Of a stretch of DNA of 64,000 nucleotides, positions 2,451 to 51,395 are shown piece after piece. A model generated the notes under the pieces. The model was not told the DNA's origin, searched no databases, and saw only the letters and a program-made list of their open reading frames with translations. Where the stretch lies: positions 71,176,001 through 71,240,000 of the forward strand of contig OX597830.1 in the NCBI GenBank assembly GCA_951406725.2, read 5' to 3'. The DNA is from Octopus vulgaris (lineage: Eukaryota). Positions within the stretch are counted from its first letter, which is position 1; each line of letters opens with the position of its first letter. The translations under genes were made by a program, and so were the position numbers.

Positions 2451-3192
2451 GACAAAAATATCTGTCAACAAATACATCAGATAATTGTAGTTTGCTTATT
2501 TATTAATAGACATATTGGGTACAGCTTCTATTCCCACTCCGAAAGTACGTGATTGAATCCATTTATTTCCTCCATTCGTAATATAACACCAGTATATCCA
2601 GTATACACAATAGTACAGTCAAATGAATTGATCGTTCTTACGAGAGGACTATATGAAAGATTGTAATACTAACACACTAGCGAGCACTTTCATCAAGAGA
2701 CTACTAACCCAGCGGTTAGTATGGATTAATTAAGATTTATTAGTTAGTAAATGTTACTGTATACAAATCTGGACAGTGTAGTGAGTAATAAGGCGTAATT
2801 CATATGGATTATTACATAAGAAGCAGTTTAAAGTTAGCATCATAGAAAGATTTTCACGATTCACGCAACGGGTGAATCATGAAAAAACAAGAGAATAAAA
2901 ACAATCGTTTGAAAAAGTGAGAGAAAAACAATCGTTTGAAAAAATGGAGTGCTCGTTTTTGCTTCATAATATCAAGATACAGACAGACACACACACACAT
3001 ACACACACATATATGTACCGTACATATATTAATAGTTACAAACATGCATATATACATACATACATGAATATATACATATATATATACATACATACACACA
3101 CAAACAGAGAGAGAGAGAGAGAGAGAGAGATAGAAGGAGAGATAGATAGAGTAGAGAGAGTACATACCATTGGATAATACTGAAATTATATA

Positions 3193-3273
<81 letters not shown>

Positions 3274-3454
3274 AGTAGAACGTTGGAATGAGTGCACAAC
3301 ACCGCATTGGTGAATAAATAATTTCTTTATTTGTTTTTATGTGGGAAACTTTCCAAGACTTTTAACAGCCTTTCAAGTATTTTAACAATTTTTCAAGCCG
3401 GTCACATGTTCTTAACATGAAACCAATGGCAGCCTAAATTCACAAATAAATAAA

Positions 3455-3543
<89 letters not shown>

Positions 3544-3921
3544 GGTGTTAAGATATTATTCTAAATAATATATAACAACAGTTGAGCAACAATTCACCAG
3601 TTCAATGAAAACTTCATTATAAAATATTTTATTCGTTAATTATTCCAAGGAAAATGGTGACAATAGTATTGCGGTTTCTGTTTAATAATCGACGCCATTT
3701 TCAAACTTAATACGGTTCATATTGATACACATTTGCGCTCTCACACACACAGACACACGCATAAATGCACTAAACACATACAGATGTAACAGTATGTACG
3801 CATGTATGTATGCATGCAAGTATATATGCACGTATGTATACATGTATTTAAGTAGGCATGCATATATATGTGTATATATATACATATATATATGTATATA
3901 TACATGTATGTATGTGTGTTC

Positions 3922-3960
<39 letters not shown>

Positions 3961-4139
3961 TAGATAGATAGATAGATAGATTCAGATGAATTTGGTACTT
4001 AAGTTATGCATACATTTTCAAAATAAGGTAATTCATTTTAATCACCTTATTTTGATTTATATATATAAATTACGCAAACATGAAAATAACACTGACATCT
4101 CATTTTAACACATATATTCACCAAATTACATAAGAATAT

Positions 4140-4879
4140 AATGAAATACTAAAGGGTAACTATATTCAGTAAAATCGCTATTGGCTTCGGAATCTCTTGC
4201 AACTCTTCTTGACAGTCTCCTTGTTTTGCGTTGGTGCATGCTGCCACAATCCTGTCTTCAGTTCATCTTTGGTGTTACAAGGAGTTTTGTCGGTCTCACG
4301 CTCACCTGCGGCTCACATATAATTATCAAGGGGGTTGCAGTCTGGAGAGTTAGGTAGCCCGATGTTAGGGGTGATGTGGTCGCTGGAATTGTCTGACAGC
4401 CATGACTAGGTTCTCCTGCTTGTGTGGCATGATGCAGAGCCCAGTTGCAGACATAGGGTCTTCCAGCAGCCACCCGCTTGACCCAGGGCAGCACTACGAC
4501 TTTCCAGGCACTTGATGTAGGTTTCTGTGTTGAGTCTGAAGCCGTGTGGGAAGATGAATGGAGGTACCACGTCGTTATCACTAGTGATCAGTCCAAACAC
4601 CACGATGCTGACTGGATGTTTGATTTTTTATCACTCGCGGTACATGTCGTCTGATCGCACTGTACTCAGTTTCACACCCAAACTCTTTGAAACGTTCGTA
4701 TGGGAACTTCCGGTGCGAATGCCATTCAAATTTCTGGCAGAATGAATTGTGTCACGGTGCTGTTTTCCTCACAGACGGCGCGCAAGTGACCCTTCTATAC
4801 TATGAAATCCACAAATACAACAATGCACATGCCCGAAATAAAAAATGTTAAATGGTGACATTTTACCCAGCACACACTG
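4140..4879 (-). mobile_element. Tc1/mariner DD37D (maT-type) transposon remnant, internally deleted
   Basis: Minus-strand VFGLITSDNDVVPPFIFPHG.RLNTETYIKCL and QLGSASCHTSRRT*SWLSDN...PNSPDCNPLD; 37 residues lie between the mutated second D and the third D; terminus CAGTGTGTGCTGGG next to TA. Confidence 0.88.
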
Positions 4880-6861: not shown

Positions 6862-7398
6862 GTAGATATATCTGGGTGCACGTGCGTCTTCTTAAGTATA
6901 TCTCACAAGAATACAACTTTACAAAAATAATTCCACTTCTGACCACGGAAAAATAAATCCTGTGTATAAAATTTATATTTCACTTGCAAAACCAGTTAAT
7001 ATTACGTGTATTTAACGCTATATCGGTCAGGCTAAATCTTCGAAGTCACTGTGAATGTTATAGAGATTATTGATATGTGTGTACTTTCCCTGTATATGTA
7101 ATTTCTGCTGATTAAGAAATAATAATATAGAGATGTATAGACTCATATTACAGATCTGTATTCCTTTATAGATAAATACACACTTATATGACTGAATATT
7201 TATACATATTTGTAAGCATATATATAAATATATATTTGCATACACGCAAAGACACACACAGGTACACACGGACGCACATAGACGCAGACAAACGCTCACA
7301 CATATGACTGTCTATCGTCTATGGATATGTATATTAAGATGTACCCACACTTAAACGTGTACGCACAAACACACACACACGCACACACACACACACTC

Positions 7399-7443
<45 letters not shown>

Positions 7444-7455
7444 CATATATATACA

Positions 7456-7486
<31 letters not shown>

Positions 7487-7494
7487 TACATATG

Positions 7495-7710
7495 GATTTG
7501 GTTTGCTAGATTCTTTATGTGAGTTCGTGTGTTGAAGAACATTCTGTTGTGTCTGGGTAGTCATTCTCCTTTAGTGCCTTATAGATTAACACACTCAGCG
7601 GTAAAGTTTCTACTCATTTACTTATTTATTTTTCTATAAATAAGCAAATGAGTGGAAAGGTTTCCGGCGTGTGTGTTAAAATATAAGGCAGTAAAAGGAA
7701 TGGCTATATA
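7495..7710 (-). mobile_element. TA-embedded short element family F with fold-back arms
   Basis: Reverse complement of 51240-51385; internal inverted arms 7557-7630 and 7637-7708. Confidence 0.7.
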
Positions 7711-7711
7711 C

Positions 7712-7801
<90 letters not shown>

Positions 7802-7870
7802 ATAATTATATATATATATAAGTATATATGCATACATATATACATGCAGACATACGTAAAAACATACATA

Positions 7871-7915
<45 letters not shown>

Positions 7916-8020
7916 CTTATCTCTCTCTCTCTCTCTCTCTCGCTATATATATATATATATATATAATTACCTAATAAAATTATCGATGTAGAAAAAATCT
8001 CTGATTTCCTGAACATTATT

Positions 8021-8120
<100 letters not shown>

Positions 8121-8203
8121 CTTATATACATACATATATATATATGCGAGTAATATATATGTATATAAAAAAAGGTAAAAGTAAATATATGTATATATAT
8201 GTA

Positions 8204-8234
<31 letters not shown>

Positions 8235-8817
8235 GCATTGTGCCACCCCACCAACTTTCAATATAATGTTTGAAAAGCCCCACACCGTTAATTACGTGGT
8301 GCGAACGTAAATTTTGAGGTATGTAACAAATATTCAACAAAATCATGGATGATAATATTTGTTTTGTTGTGTTTAGTTCATATTTCGTCAGTAGAATTAA
8401 TTGTGGATCAGTTTTTTCGTTGTAAACTCAAATACTTTTGACATACTAGTTTCTACCTTGTTGATGCCAGAGTTCGCAAAATTTTGCATAAGCATCCAGT
8501 GTATATAAACATGATATTTCCCGAACGTTCAATTTTTGCACCGTCGCTAAATACACCAGTACATACACACACACATGCATATATATATATATACACATCT
8601 TTGTAGGCATATACAAGAATACACAAAATGTGTGTTGCGGTGAATATGCACACATAAATATATATATTTCGTATTCATTTAATTTCTTATACTTTCTATA
8701 CTATTATTATTTATACTTATATGTTAATATATATATCCATACATATATATATATATAAGTGTTCCTATATATATACATATACATACATATATGCATATAT
8801 ATATATATATATATATA

Positions 8818-9036
8818 TTGGGTTGGTGCTTTATTATTGTGGCTGTTTTTCAACAAATTTTATTCAACAAAAACAATAACAATTTTTAACCTAAGCATTT
8901 TTAATTACGGTTTCAATAGATGGTGAATATGGGCTCCGGAATAATCATTTAAAGATGTTTTTGTTTCATGTTGTTATTGTTTTTGTTGAATAAAATTTGC
9001 TAAAAAAAAACCCGCAATAATTATGCACCAAGCCAA
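8818..9036. mobile_element. Mariner-type MITE
   Basis: ~65 bp TIRs TTGGGTTGGTGC..AACAATAACAA / TTGTTATTGTT..GCACCAAGCCAA, flanked by TA. Confidence 0.8.
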
Positions 9037-28950: not shown

Positions 28951-29122
28951 AACACACACAAAGTTACACTTTTACCTTTTTGTTGAATACATTTGGTATA
29001 AAATGTACACGCACCTCCATATATTATACGCAGTATGAAATACAGTAAAAAATATTTTTTTATATATTGAAAGTAGATATGTAGTATGGAAGCATACATA
29101 CGGTCATTCATTCATATATATG

Positions 29123-29273
<151 letters not shown>

Positions 29274-29284
29274 ATATATATATA

Positions 29285-29427
29285 CCTCGTGTGTACCGTT
29301 GGCGATTTTTTTTTCCTCTGTCGTCCCTCTCTGGATCTTTCCTTCTCCTATGTTTCCGACGAAGAGCTCCGCTCGAAACGTTAAACCCTCCTTCTTTCCT
29401 GCTTTCCTGAGCGTCCAATAATACTAT
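29285..29427 (+). mobile_element. Family R element, truncated
   Basis: GTTT-CCGACGA-A-GAGC-TCC-GCTC-GAAA-CG-TT-AAAC at 29352-29386. Confidence 0.85.
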
Positions 29428-29442
29428 AAAATATGTATATAT

Positions 29443-29594
29443 TTGTGCAGATGAGGGCAACTGCATCGAACTCTCTCATGCACCAAGTGGCAGTTGCTAA
29501 AAAGCATTCGTGAAGTAAAATCATGTAGCAACACCAAATGGCGGTGCCCCAGCATGGCCACAGCTTGTGAGCTGAAACTGGATAAAAAAAAAAA
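29443..29594 (+). mobile_element. CR1-like LINE 3' end (ORF end, UTR, poly-A)
   Basis: [13 protein letters not shown] resembles CR1 terminal SNSL motif; UTR nearly identical to 54820-54906 and 62043-62107. Confidence 0.75.
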
Positions 29595-37414: not shown

Positions 37415-37503
<89 letters not shown>

Positions 37504-37634
37504 GCGAATAAGAAAATGAAGAATCACATTAGTTGGTTCATCAACTTTAGGATAAAAACACTTGTGTATTATATATTGGATAAATATTATCCCTTAGTGG
37601 GTTGGACCCACAACCCCTAACTTTCTTGGTGTAA

Positions 37635-37699
<65 letters not shown>

Positions 37700-37706
<7 letters not shown>

Positions 37707-38011
37707 AATATTAGGGAATAAATCCAAAATTACAGGGAAAAAATCAGATTTAGGATTAAATCCAATTTATAGTAAAATATTATATAATATTAATTCAAGA
37801 CAAAACCACTATTTTGCAAATCAAACAAGGAAAGACTTAATCAATACATAAAAAATTTTAATATAAAGTAAATAAATCGCCACTACAATTGTTTCATGTC
37901 TTCAAATGACATTCGTCATGTGGATTTCCGATCTTCTATTCAGTTTTATTTTTTTACGTATTGATTAAGTCTTTCTTTGTTTGATTTGCAAAATAGTGGT
38001 TTTGTCTCGAA

Positions 38012-38022
<11 letters not shown>
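37700..38022 (-). mobile_element. Penelope-like terminal-repeat element family P with inverted second arm
   Basis: Matches 52496-52820 and 63332-63420; inverted arms ~37783-37856 and ~37948-38022; (TA)n on both sides. Confidence 0.85.
37880..37923 (-). ncRNA. Minimal type-I hammerhead motif (C3 mutated to A)
   Basis: CCAC-ATGACGA-ATGTC-ATTTGAA-GACAT-GAAA-CAATTG-TA-GTGG. Confidence 0.75.
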
Positions 38023-38060
<38 letters not shown>

Positions 38061-38120
38061 TATTAAATACCTGTATGTCATCTCCAAAACTTCCAGTATA
38101 TATATATATATATATACACA

Positions 38121-38310
38121 TTATTTAAAAAGCAACAGAAATATCACAAAAACTGTTACTCAGAACTTCAAGTTCTCGTTCGTAAAACTTTGAGTAAAGG
38201 GTTTTTGTGATATTCTGCTGATTTTAAATACACCATATTACTCTAGCTGTGGTATTTGAGTACTCTTTTTTCCACCTTATTTCAAATTCATGTACTTAAC
38301 CCGGTATATA
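38121..38310. mobile_element. Fold-back short element with decayed hammerhead-like centre
   Basis: Arms TATTTAAAAAGCAACAGAAATATCACAAAAAC..TTACTCA / TGAGTAA..GTTTTTGTGATATTCTG..TTTTAAATA. Confidence 0.55.
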
Positions 38311-38519
38311 CACACACACACACACACTGAAAGGCACATATGCGGCTATACGAGTTTAAATACATAAGAAACGGATGCGGAGGGTATGATACCATTATCA
38401 AAATACTAAGATAGAACTATACAAAACAAAATAGTTTTGAAAGAGTAAAAACAACCATATTTAATCAGAATGATACGCTTCACTTCTGCCCTGGATTCTA
38501 CTATGTCAATATTTATAAT

Positions 38520-38521
38520 TA

Positions 38522-38581
<60 letters not shown>

Positions 38582-38595
38582 CATCATCATCATCA

Positions 38596-38689
<94 letters not shown>

Positions 38690-38703
38690 CATCATCATCA
38701 TCA

Positions 38704-38791
<88 letters not shown>

Positions 38792-38800
38792 CATTATTAT
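38520..38800. repeat. (TTA)n/(TCA)n compound microsatellite
   Basis: Direct reading. Confidence 0.97.
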
Positions 38801-39031
38801 AATTAATTATTAAAGGGTTGTTATACAAATTTATTTATTAGATGAGAATATGTAATATAAGGGAGCGCTGTGATATCTTGCATGATGTTGTTTATTAATC
38901 TGCATCTGCCATGTACTTTTATTAGCACGATTTTTGTTAACATTCTACTGTCCATACATTCATACATACATACATATTTGTGTGTGCATGTGTGTGTGTG
39001 TCTTTGTGTGCATGAGTGTGTGTATCCGAAT

Positions 39032-39086
<55 letters not shown>

Positions 39087-39199
39087 GTACATATCCTACG
39101 CCAATAAACCACTAATATTCCTGAAAGCTTTTTGCATACCTTCTACAGACTGCACGAAGCTTACTAACTTTTTACACCTGGATACTTTGATCTTACGTT

Positions 39200-39424
39200 T
39201 ACTTATTATAGAGGACTGAACACTAAAAGTGGACAGCCTGAATGCTAGATATAGACTTCAAAATCGCCATTTTCCACGAAGAATGTCTTCTCAAAAAACC
39301 AAAGTGTAAACATAAGCAAGACAAATGAAAATATACGAAAAAAAAATTAATTAATCTTCGGATTTTTCAAAATATGCTAGGCCACTGGTTTTAATTGATT
39401 AATATCAAATTTCTACCCTTATAC

Positions 39425-39428
<4 letters not shown>
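39200..39428 (+). mobile_element. TA-embedded element family D
   Basis: Second copy at 27340-27505. Confidence 0.6.
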
Positions 39429-39467
<39 letters not shown>

Positions 39468-39558
39468 TTCAGCAAAAATTTAGATTCGAATGAATATGGT
39501 ACTTAATTTAGATGCACCAGAATTTTGTATGGTGTTATCCATAAAAAATTGTAGGGTG

Positions 39559-39630
<72 letters not shown>

Positions 39631-39655
39631 AAATCTTTAATTTATGAGCATCATG

Positions 39656-39785
39656 TGCTTCATCACATACCGAAATTTAGAAATAGCAGTTAAAATACTC
39701 CCAGATATTGCTATCTGGGAGTTATTTTATGATAGTAGAATAGCATTTTAACTGCTATTTCTAAATTTCGGTATGTGGTGAAGCA
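39656..39785. repeat. Nested hairpin: 41 bp arms enclosing an 11 bp hairpin
   Basis: TGCTTCATCACATACCGAAATTTAGAAATAGCAGTTAAAAT and its reverse complement; inner ACTCCCAGATA-TTGC-TATCTGGGAGT. Confidence 0.9.
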
Positions 39786-39940
39786 TATTGCGTTGAGCCC
39801 TAATTATAATTATGCTCACAATTGTAGAATTTTTGAATAAGTTTACCGATAATTGTTCTTTTAACATACCGAAGTACCTGTTAAAATTATCAATTATTAA
39901 TTTTACTCTATATCATTTTTGAAATGCATATATATATACA

Positions 39941-40032
<92 letters not shown>

Positions 40033-40605
40033 CATACATACATACATACACATACAGACATATATATATACACATGTATGTAAGTATATAGATATACATA
40101 TGCGTGTAAGTATATATATAGTATAGCATATATATATGATATCTAATGTATATATTATAGATACGTGTGTGTGTGGGGGGGGTGAGGACATATCTATGGT
40201 TTGGCTTCGCGTCGGAAACAGCTGTAGTGAAACTTTAACCCGTCTGTGTGTATATATATATATATATAAGCAAATTTTATGTTGAATACTATACCAAACA
40301 AAAGATGAGCAAATGGTTGTTGATGGCATCAAATCGTCTTGAAATTTCTTACACTGATAAGCATATAAAATAAATATTATTAAAGGATTGTTATGAAAAA
40401 ATAAATTGGAAAATAATCAACAGCAATTTTTTATACATTTGTAGAAATCCAAGAACTTCATCTGCAAAAGCACAACAATAAATAATACTGTTTATAATTC
40501 ATATTAATGTATTTCGTGTATATATATACATATCATGTTGAATACTATATATGCATTATATATATATATATATTAGAAGGTTTGGAGATGATGTACAGGA
40601 ATTTT

Positions 40606-40908
40606 ATATTAGAAGAAATGAGGTACTCAGAAATTCAGATGATTTTATATTTACAGATATATATTTGTATATTACATGTTTTTATACATTATATAACTTA
40701 TATATCATATATTTGCGTTTTCGTCCATTCTGGTAGATATTTCAAATTGAACTAAGTTCAGTTTGAAAACTCCACCAGAATGGACGAAAGCGCTGATATA
40801 TGATATATGATCTAAGTTATATGATGTATAAAAACATGTAATATACTAATAAATATCTGTAAATATAAACCCATCCGAATTTCTGAGTACCTCATTTTTT
40901 CTAATGTA
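40606..40908. repeat. ~300 bp quasi-perfect palindrome
   Basis: Arms pair from TTAGAAGAAATGAGGTACTCAGAAATT to centre TGAAC-TAA-GTTCA (~40754). Confidence 0.92.
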
Positions 40909-41226
40909 TATATATAAATATCCATATATATAGACATATGTACATATATATATATGGATATATATACGTATATATATACGTATATATATACGTATATATA
41001 TACGTATATATGTGTATTTATGTATATTCCCATACAAAGGTATCCTTACCTATATATTTGTGTGTGTGTATATATATATATATATATGAGAGTATATATA
41101 TATACGTATATATACGTATATATATATATGTATGTATGTATGTATAGACGTATATATATATATATATATATATACGTACATACATATATATATATATATA
41201 CAAATATACATATACATACATGCATA

Positions 41227-41264
<38 letters not shown>

Positions 41265-41271
<7 letters not shown>

Positions 41272-41380
41272 AATAAAAGAATGGAGTCGAACGAGGATTT
41301 TAACACAATTCCTTTAATTTCAACACGTTTCGAAGTCTGCATATTCTTAATTCTGAAGGTGCATTATGCCGTCTTCTCAT
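41265..41380 (-). mobile_element. TA-embedded fragment with 5'-truncated hammerhead-like motif
   Basis: Minus strand ATGA-GAAGAC..GACTTC-GAAA-CGTG-TT-GAAA; the CTG of the core is replaced by (TA)n. Confidence 0.45.
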
Positions 41381-41472
41381 ATATATATATGCATATATAT
41401 ATATACATACATTTTATCCAATGGGAGATGTATTCATGTATATTCCCATACAAAGGTATCCTCACCTATATA

Positions 41473-41535
<63 letters not shown>

Positions 41536-50844: not shown

Positions 50845-51057
50845 AGTTAATCCAAACATGAAAGCACAAAAAACACAACAACGCGAGGACGTGGAACAGA
50901 TATAGTATTAATAGACGCTCAGAAAAGAAGGAAAGAAATAGGATTTAACGTTTCGAGTGGAGCTCTTCGTCGAAAACATAGGAGAAGGAAAGATCCAGAG
51001 AAGAGAAGACAGAGGAAAAAAAAATCGCCAACGGTACACACGCGGTCACATTTTGAA
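50845..51057 (-). mobile_element. Family R element, full unit
   Basis: Same ends as 24421-24636; hammerhead-like motif at 50943-50977 with mutated core. Confidence 0.85.
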
Positions 51058-51059
51058 TA

Positions 51060-51096
<37 letters not shown>

Positions 51097-51200
51097 GTAT
51101 ATGTGTGTATGTATATATATGTATATAGAAAGTTAGAGAGCGAGAGAGAGGGAAAGAAAGAAAGAAAGATAGATTGATAGGTATGTATGTATGTATTGCA

Positions 51201-51395
51201 TTTTCTATTAAAGTTTGCAAGACGCAACGAAAATTTTAGGAAAATAAAAATAAGAACTAAGTGGAAATTTTACCGTGAGTGTGTTAAATTATAAGGCACA
51301 AAAAGAAAATGACACTCCCCAGACACAACAGAATATGCTTCAACACACTAATTCGCATAAAGAATCTTGCAAACGAAATCCCAAAACGAAAATAT
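51201..51395 (+). mobile_element. Family F element with decayed hammerhead-like motif
   Basis: TTTT-CTATTAA-AG-TTTGC-AAGAC-GCAAC-GAAA-ATTT-TA-GGAA (51201-51242); body matches 7495-7635. Confidence 0.6.

Follow-up and report, generated by a model that had tools for sequence, protein, structure and literature searches.

A palindrome of two head-to-head Penelope element ends in the octopus genome, and its possible origin by priming at both target strands

The palindrome at 40606-40908 of the window (the whole 64,000-nt stretch of DNA that was analysed, from a 2.8-Gb host genome rich in microsatellites) consists of two 3′ ends (pLTRs) of a Neptune-like Penelope element (PLE) in head-to-head orientation, inserted in (TA)n. 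As such it is ordinary retroelement debris, with a layout that has already been described. Comparison of its sequence with that of its relatives suggests that it arose in a single insertion, in which RT was primed at both cut strands of the (TA)n target on one RNA and the two copies were joined near the RNA 5′ end, a reading to which we assign a probability of roughly 60%. The inverted-pLTR architecture itself is published; new in this analysis are a likely transcription-start boundary at which copies end and a bias in arm length. The copies described here bear on a question listed as unresolved in the relevant part of PMC8557442, namely how the inverted repeats and the one-sided tails of PLEs arise.

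The original prediction had placed a palindrome of about 300 bp at this site, and self-alignment confirmed it with an arm identity of 86.7% over 309 columns; the DNA fold of the palindrome (-112.6 kcal/mol, z -26.6) was equalled in stability by none of 100 shuffles. The tailed arm (40606-40759, minus strand) is a 5′-truncated pLTR of the Neptune-like PLE that matches parent 3′ ends at 85-95% and ends at parent position -13, while the tail-less arm (40749-40908, plus strand) is an inverted 5′-truncated pLTR that ends at the family's proximal end, where it is joined to (TA)n. Both arms share an 11-nt overlap at the unstranded junction (40749-40759), a native mini-hairpin of the parent sequence, GAAC-TTA-GTTC, with a 4-bp stem and a 3-nt loop; it includes TTAGTT, the Inr-like motif at which transcription presumably starts, and both arms reach -13, i.e., 5 nt past the Inr-like A. 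The element extends beyond the limits first given for it, to about 40573, with a PLE tail of 33-36 nt on the left arm only (40573-40605, minus strand), the end of which merges with (TA)n; palindromic homologues carry the same extension at exactly one end. The flanks are (TA)n, which would mask any target-site duplication. Among the window's ORFs of at least 100 aa, no PLE protein was recognised by eye. An origin of the two arms from different subfamilies was considered and rejected: they differ at 3 of 24 diagnostic sites, which at about 10% arm divergence is indistinguishable from later mutation.

Relatives of the palindrome, hereafter family 1, are abundant, with 1340 exact matches to a 29-letter core pattern and 2791 to a 20-letter 3′-end pattern (reversed controls, 0). 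Loci sampled from these searches are referred to by L-numbers, and the proportions given come from loci on C1 and part of C2. Fifteen aligned homologues had (TA)n flanks, and most carried the 33-36-nt extension at one end only. A query with the full palindrome returned 2488 candidates, and all 40 that were scored aligned to it on both strands, and their outer ends were alike, as expected of a palindromic MITE or of a palindrome transposing as a unit, but such a query itself favours palindromic copies. With one arm as query, non-palindromic copies were the majority among 29 other loci read, and BLAST found no inverted arm at 67 of 88 core-bearing loci. The centres moreover vary from copy to copy, tails and ends are asymmetric, and the long parent copies encode RT and GIY-YIG. 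These parent copies rule out the MITE reading, which we regard as close to impossible; the homologues are not MITEs, and the proposal that the palindrome is a PLE product was upheld.

The parent ORF is present in long copies, about 1-1.4 kb upstream of the shared 3′ end. Its RT domain (PF00078, E 1e-5) scored under the Pfam cut-off, and the C-terminal GIY-YIG domain (PF01541, E 4e-6, in L084) scored over it; both occur in a 463-aa frame in L076, and in other copies too, with a Cx4CxxC linker between the domains. The Neptune-type motifs CGDGRCGIC and YCITCPTCKEDYIGET were found in the parent frame by eye comparison with rows of the PMC8557442 supplement, and judged in the same way the parent sequence appears to match the Neptune rows better than the Nematis rows. 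Unlike the Neptune clade in the portion of PMC8557442 concerned, family 1, placed there by eye comparison, has a long (1-1.4 kb), microsatellite-rich 3′ UTR. The Naiad clade was ruled out by the C-terminal, rather than N-terminal, position of GIY-YIG. Four family motifs gave 0 matches in the Naiad/Chlamys/Hydra supplement of PMC8557442, where line breaks can hide matches; the comparison covered part of the supplement's files, and the remaining consensus files could hold these families. The near full-length copy L097 begins with a partial pLTR, followed by the tail, which runs on into the element body, and L185 is built likewise. The pLTR thus arises from a partial tandem, and the element body begins with the tail; this is standard PLE anatomy as given in the pertinent parts of PMC8557442 and PMC2377424.

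Each arm wholly encloses a minimal hammerhead, decayed in the window copy, with the U3-A8 variant of the core, a stem II of 4 bp and a stem III that is palindromic. The midpoint of the palindrome falls a little way above this motif, not within it. The family parse runs from a TTGAAAA box through stem II (YCCA/TGGR, closed by a loop of 6 nt) and GAA to the palindromic AGCGCT, with A at position 17. The hammerhead of the tail-less arm (40762-40795, plus strand) has the box at 40763-40769 (U3-A8), stem II at 40771-40784 (TCCA/TGGA), GAA at 40786-40788 and stem III AGCGCT at 40789-40794, with G at position 17, where 221 of 235 family cores have A. By the cleavage-site rule we presume that a hammerhead with G17 is non-cleavable. 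Read against the family parse, the hammerhead of the tailed arm (40713-40745, minus strand) has a changed A9, a stem II mismatch and a broken stem III palindrome.

These hammerheads bear directly upon the mechanism first proposed for the palindrome, in which the central hairpin was taken to be stem II of the ribozyme and the site where nascent cDNA folds back on itself. The motifs on which it was built, GTCCATTCTGG (40723-40733), CCAGAATGGAC (40775-40785) and GAAA-GCGC-T (40786-40794), all lie where they had been placed, and the last does form, as proposed, the 3′ half of a minimal hammerhead whose stem III is palindromic. The 5′ box CTGAnGA had been reported missing, and no CTGAnGA...GAAA match was indeed found in 37500-41500, but a 5′ box exists in the form of TTGAAAA. 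The central hairpin is not stem II: it comes from the mirror arm and is absent from the parent, the true stem II lies inside each arm with a compensatory exchange between T-A (109 of 235 cores) and C-G (113), and GTCCATTCTGG belongs to the mirror arm only. Non-palindromic parents have neither GTCCATTCTGG on the sense strand nor a CTGAnGA 5′ of it; above the box they have ordinary UTR ending in GAAC-TTA-GTTC. Nor do inversion points fall at stem II, since only 2 of the 98 arm ends in 49 family 1 palindromes (62 found minus 13 duplicate or complex ones, with 15 chosen for similarity to the window copy) lie there, whereas 62 lie within -15 to +4 of the 5′ box, positions that come from local alignments and may be off by several bases. 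Some observations do agree with the proposal, as the 5′-end rate is slightly raised over the family 1 core (0 to +20) and 10 of 78 arm ends in a second family, family 2, lie in stem II, including the copy at 38121-38230 of the window and several copies picked for similarity to it. Fold-back at stem II is refuted as a general rule and is a highly improbable source of the palindromes; the idea fits a minority of family 2, in which a minor pause at stem II is possible.

Across the 235 cores, positions 3 and 8 were U-A in 206, U.G in 19, C-G in 4 and other in 6, in a search whose patterns were biased to U3 forms; GAA was present in 216 and stem III AGCGCT in 158. The outer stem II pair was T-A in 109, C-G in 113, G.U in 3 and other in 10, and this covariation represents one subfamily split rather than many events. 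By eye, 2 bp of stem I are constant, while distal pairing is not kept between subfamilies, and an extended stem I was rejected as it is not maintained across them. Rfam reported nothing at gathering score for four parent loci; for the window, the 150 of 510 matches listed were all microsatellite-driven and sub-gathering, with zero hammerheads among them. The exact pattern CTGANGA before a T-A stem II occurred in 0 copies, and canonical cores exist in the diverged copies L014, L197, L219 and L259. The last three form a diverged subfamily in which GCA replaces GAA, so that decay of the two core boxes seems to take place in separate lineages. A tandem duplication of about 28 nt of the hammerhead 5′ half recurs in one subfamily (L009, L023, L034, L044, L065, L099, L101, L189); in L009 and L044 it sits on one arm only, suggesting RT slippage across the ribozyme junction.

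The family 1 hammerhead resembles the minimal type I PLE hammerheads in the sections of PMC4209133 that deal with them, including that of Schistosoma Cercyon, in its U3-A8 core, palindromic stem III and pLTR location; the same sections describe opposite-strand hammerhead pairs about 100-700 bp apart and a 2-bp helix I in D. virilis. It differs from them in a stem II of 4 bp rather than 7-8 bp, in the joint occurrence of C3-G8, U3.G8 and U3-A8 forms within one family, and in lacking the G10.1-C11.1 pair, which is G-C in 2 of 235 cores and otherwise mostly C.A (116), C.C (60) or A.C (42), although some published PLE hammerheads also show mismatches at that position. The coexistence of the three core forms in one family provides a natural series for cleavage assays.

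The positions at which copies end were examined in the first 90 distinct places obtained from the 29-letter core matches, 88 loci after removal of 2 paired duplicates. Thirty-seven of the 88 have their 5′ end in the 15 nt at or above the box, a sharp limit 0-12 nt upstream of the ribozyme, and the 45 nt beyond contain 6 (rate ratio 13, p 3e-13); plain truncations and inversions both fed this pile-up. Among 76 arms at 67 loci chosen by their 3′ end, the end rate climbed toward the same boundary and was zero in the 15 nt beyond it. Ribozyme cleavage as the determinant of the 5′ end was rejected, there being no excess of ends near +34. About 30 nt upstream of the pile-up is a conserved TATA box. 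Of the 98 arms that retain the upstream part, 85 have a TATAAAA-type box at a distance of 32-34 nt upstream from the A of a TTAGTT-like motif, and the spacer separating the two motifs varies between subfamilies. Both motifs resemble the TATA and Inr consensus in sequence and spacing, 32-34 nt being at the long end of the usual TATA spacing. From these motifs we infer that the pile-up reflects transcription initiating within the pLTR at a TATA/Inr start, about -12 to -8. Set against this reading are the long TATA spacing, the reach of the window arms past the Inr-like A, and the want of a clear TATA in a second family described below.

The arms of family 1 palindromes follow several rules. One tail was present in 43 of 49 palindromes (41 automatic and 2 corrected by eye), none in 6 and two in 0. 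Of 24 diagnostic sites, at most 1 distinguished the two arms in 22 of 27 palindromes, compared with 11-13% of random pairs, and arms carrying the same subfamily variants indicate that both come from one template type. Where the arms differed in length by more than 10 nt, the tail-less arm was longer in 22 of 30 curated palindromes (p 0.016; 22 vs. 7 in the automatic set) and the tailed arm in the other 8; curation removed three mirror artefacts (L004, L044, L150) and added two palindromes with a longer tailed arm (L263, L104) and two with a longer tail-less arm (L131, L158). In palindromes pooled over all ages, as here, deletions after insertion could also yield such asymmetry, though without an expected bias to the tailed arm. 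Many centres are loop-free self-complementary words of 2-6 nt, including CTAG in L298, L317, L328, L349 and L351, and further such centres occur in L142, L033, L146, L247 and L251. In L325 and L338 a partial tail adjoins a tail-less arm that extends to -16 or 0, which is the layout of L1 twin priming. Taken together, the single tail, matching arms, loop-free centres and longer tail-less arm favour two-ended copying over cDNA fold-back, and the loop-free words, which pair more easily between two cDNA ends than within one, support the joining of two ends.

Under this two-ended copying, a scheme read from genomic footprints, both target 3′ ends would prime cDNA on one uncleaved RNA, and the two arm ends would correspond to two internal RT start sites bracketing the tail, by analogy with what is seen in vitro for Anolis Poseidon. 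RT starting at the proximal site would be unobstructed, while tail-primed RT would have to displace it, so that the tailed arm would more often be short. Both cDNAs would run off near the RNA 5′ end, at the transcription start of the pLTR promoter, and their ends would be joined via a short self-complementary sequence. The ribozyme would be only a passenger, with cDNA passing through its cleavage site. The Poseidon work, in the parts of PMC11167929 concerned, describes a PAc protein that cuts and extends both target strands from two RT start sites flanking the tail, uses a sense template for RT, does not need ribozyme cleavage, and is predicted to form a dimer. PAc belongs to a different clade from family 1, and the same parts describe no inverted products.

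L1 twin priming joins two cDNA ends at an internal junction, and inverts sequence without duplicating it. Family 1 palindromes differ from it in copying the same stretch twice. A literature search, with subscription journals outside its scope, found no paper evidently proposing twin priming for PLEs.

Fold-back of nascent cDNA was nonetheless also weighed in a modified form, in which the cDNA turns back at the native mini-hairpin above the ribozyme (here GAAC-TTA-GTTC) and is copied back, with endonuclease trimming at the proximal site removing the second tail. The part of the original prediction that invoked self-priming survives in this form for the window copy, at a hairpin other than the one it had named: the centre of that copy (4-bp stem, 3-nt loop, arms to -13) fits fold-back and two-ended copying equally well, as do L013 and L119, to all three of which fold-back is an exact fit. 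Fold-back further accounts for matching arms and a single tail per palindrome, L036 has a looped microhomology junction, and the inverted arm of L095 takes in about 600 nt of 3′ flank. The patterns across the family, however, argue against it as the main route. Tailed cDNA cannot yield a longer tail-less arm without later deletion, yet this is the commoner asymmetry; loop-free centres of 2-6 nt presumably cannot fold intramolecularly with a usable primer; and the end hotspot persists both in subfamilies without the hairpin and in non-inverted truncations. On balance we regard fold-back at the mini-hairpin as unlikely.

The published insertions of EN+ PLEs, in the parts of PMC8557442, PMC3846280 and PMC2377424 that describe them, have an inverted 5′-truncated pLTR and a 30-40-bp tail, and resemble the copies seen here in the head-to-head pLTRs, the tail at one end, the (TA)n target, the partial-tandem 5′ pLTR of the long copy and the short palindrome at the inverted junction. 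They differ in that the whole window insertion consists of two pLTR ends and that 5′ ends lie at one sharp boundary. Their published explanation, self-priming on antisense RNA with its 3′ end at the 5′ boundary of the pLTR and resolution by the endonuclease (Gladyshev and Arkhipova, 2013), also differs from the two-ended priming favoured here. Although it is the published reading of palindromes at inverted PLE junctions (in the part of PMC3846280 concerned) and is consistent with matching arms and a fixed centre, it leaves unexplained the non-inverted copies that end at the same boundary, the loop-free centres and very short tailed arms, and it sits poorly with the sense template used in vitro. 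We consider it improbable.

Whether two-ended priming extends to Penelope inversions in general is a more tentative matter, to which we give slightly less than even odds. Two RTs on one uncleaved RNA would run off the transcription start of the pLTR, and displacement of one by the trailing tail-primed enzyme would fix both the single tail and the longer tail-less arm, so that palindrome centres would map the start. The same sharp 5′ boundary and arm rules recur in two unrelated families of one genome, and this yields predictions that can be tested in the in vitro system already available.

The second of these, family 2, is Hydra-like and is represented in the window by a PLE palindrome at 38118-38304 (plus strand), which consists of a tail-less arm with a decayed stem II (38118-38183), a tailed arm (38184-38233) and a tail of about 70 nt (38234-38304). 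The original prediction had described 38121-38230 as a weaker similar case, and it is a weaker palindrome of the same layout with its own end in stem II; that position is not typical of the family, in which 42 of 78 arm ends lie 5-21 nt above the core. Pattern searches gave 6976 matches to family 2, which has canonical CTGATGA hammerheads. Thirty-nine of 66 loci were inverted, 38 of these with one tail, and ends piled up just above the ribozyme (30 vs. 2, p 6e-11) at a boundary with an Inr-like CCATTC and no clear TATA. Upstream frames in L290, L291 and L304-L306 resemble Hydra-clade C-terminal endonucleases when compared by eye with rows of the PMC8557442 supplement, and Pfam found nothing significant in L306. 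Likeness to the Hydra clade in those rows extends to the endonuclease motifs and (TA)n targets, and the hammerhead shares CTGT/ACAG in stem I and ACTC-N-GAGT in stem III with that of Hydra-2_aMil; it is not the one published for Hydra-1_Obim in the part of the source covered, and the tail is about 70 nt long.

Several further arrangements were observed at these loci. A minimal family 1 relic, about 9 nt of inverted proximal end joined straight to a tail in (TA)n, lies at 38052-38099 (plus strand), about 20 nt from the family 2 palindrome, and in L127, L157 and L043, too, elements of the two families are neighbours within one (TA)n tract. Two related dispersed repeat fragments that share translated stretches occur in the window at 29039-29475 and 50851-51269. 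The five copies L037-L041 (G000:C11:25.41-25.47 Mb), which are nearly identical, share their flanks and all lie within a 70-kb stretch, represent a segmental tandem duplication and not independent insertions. The L095 locus (G000:C19:6500-16400) contains a 1.66-kb inverted copy (oriented positions 2975-4631 and 7191-8854) that is 99.3% identical and has a tail at neither end; its extension into the flank past the 3′ end may stem from 3′ transduction, from copy-back into the flank or from misassembly close to the end of the contig. Finally, the host DNA to either side of the match at 1500 in L048, a short insertion of family 1, forms an inverted repeat of its own with (TA)n at its centre.
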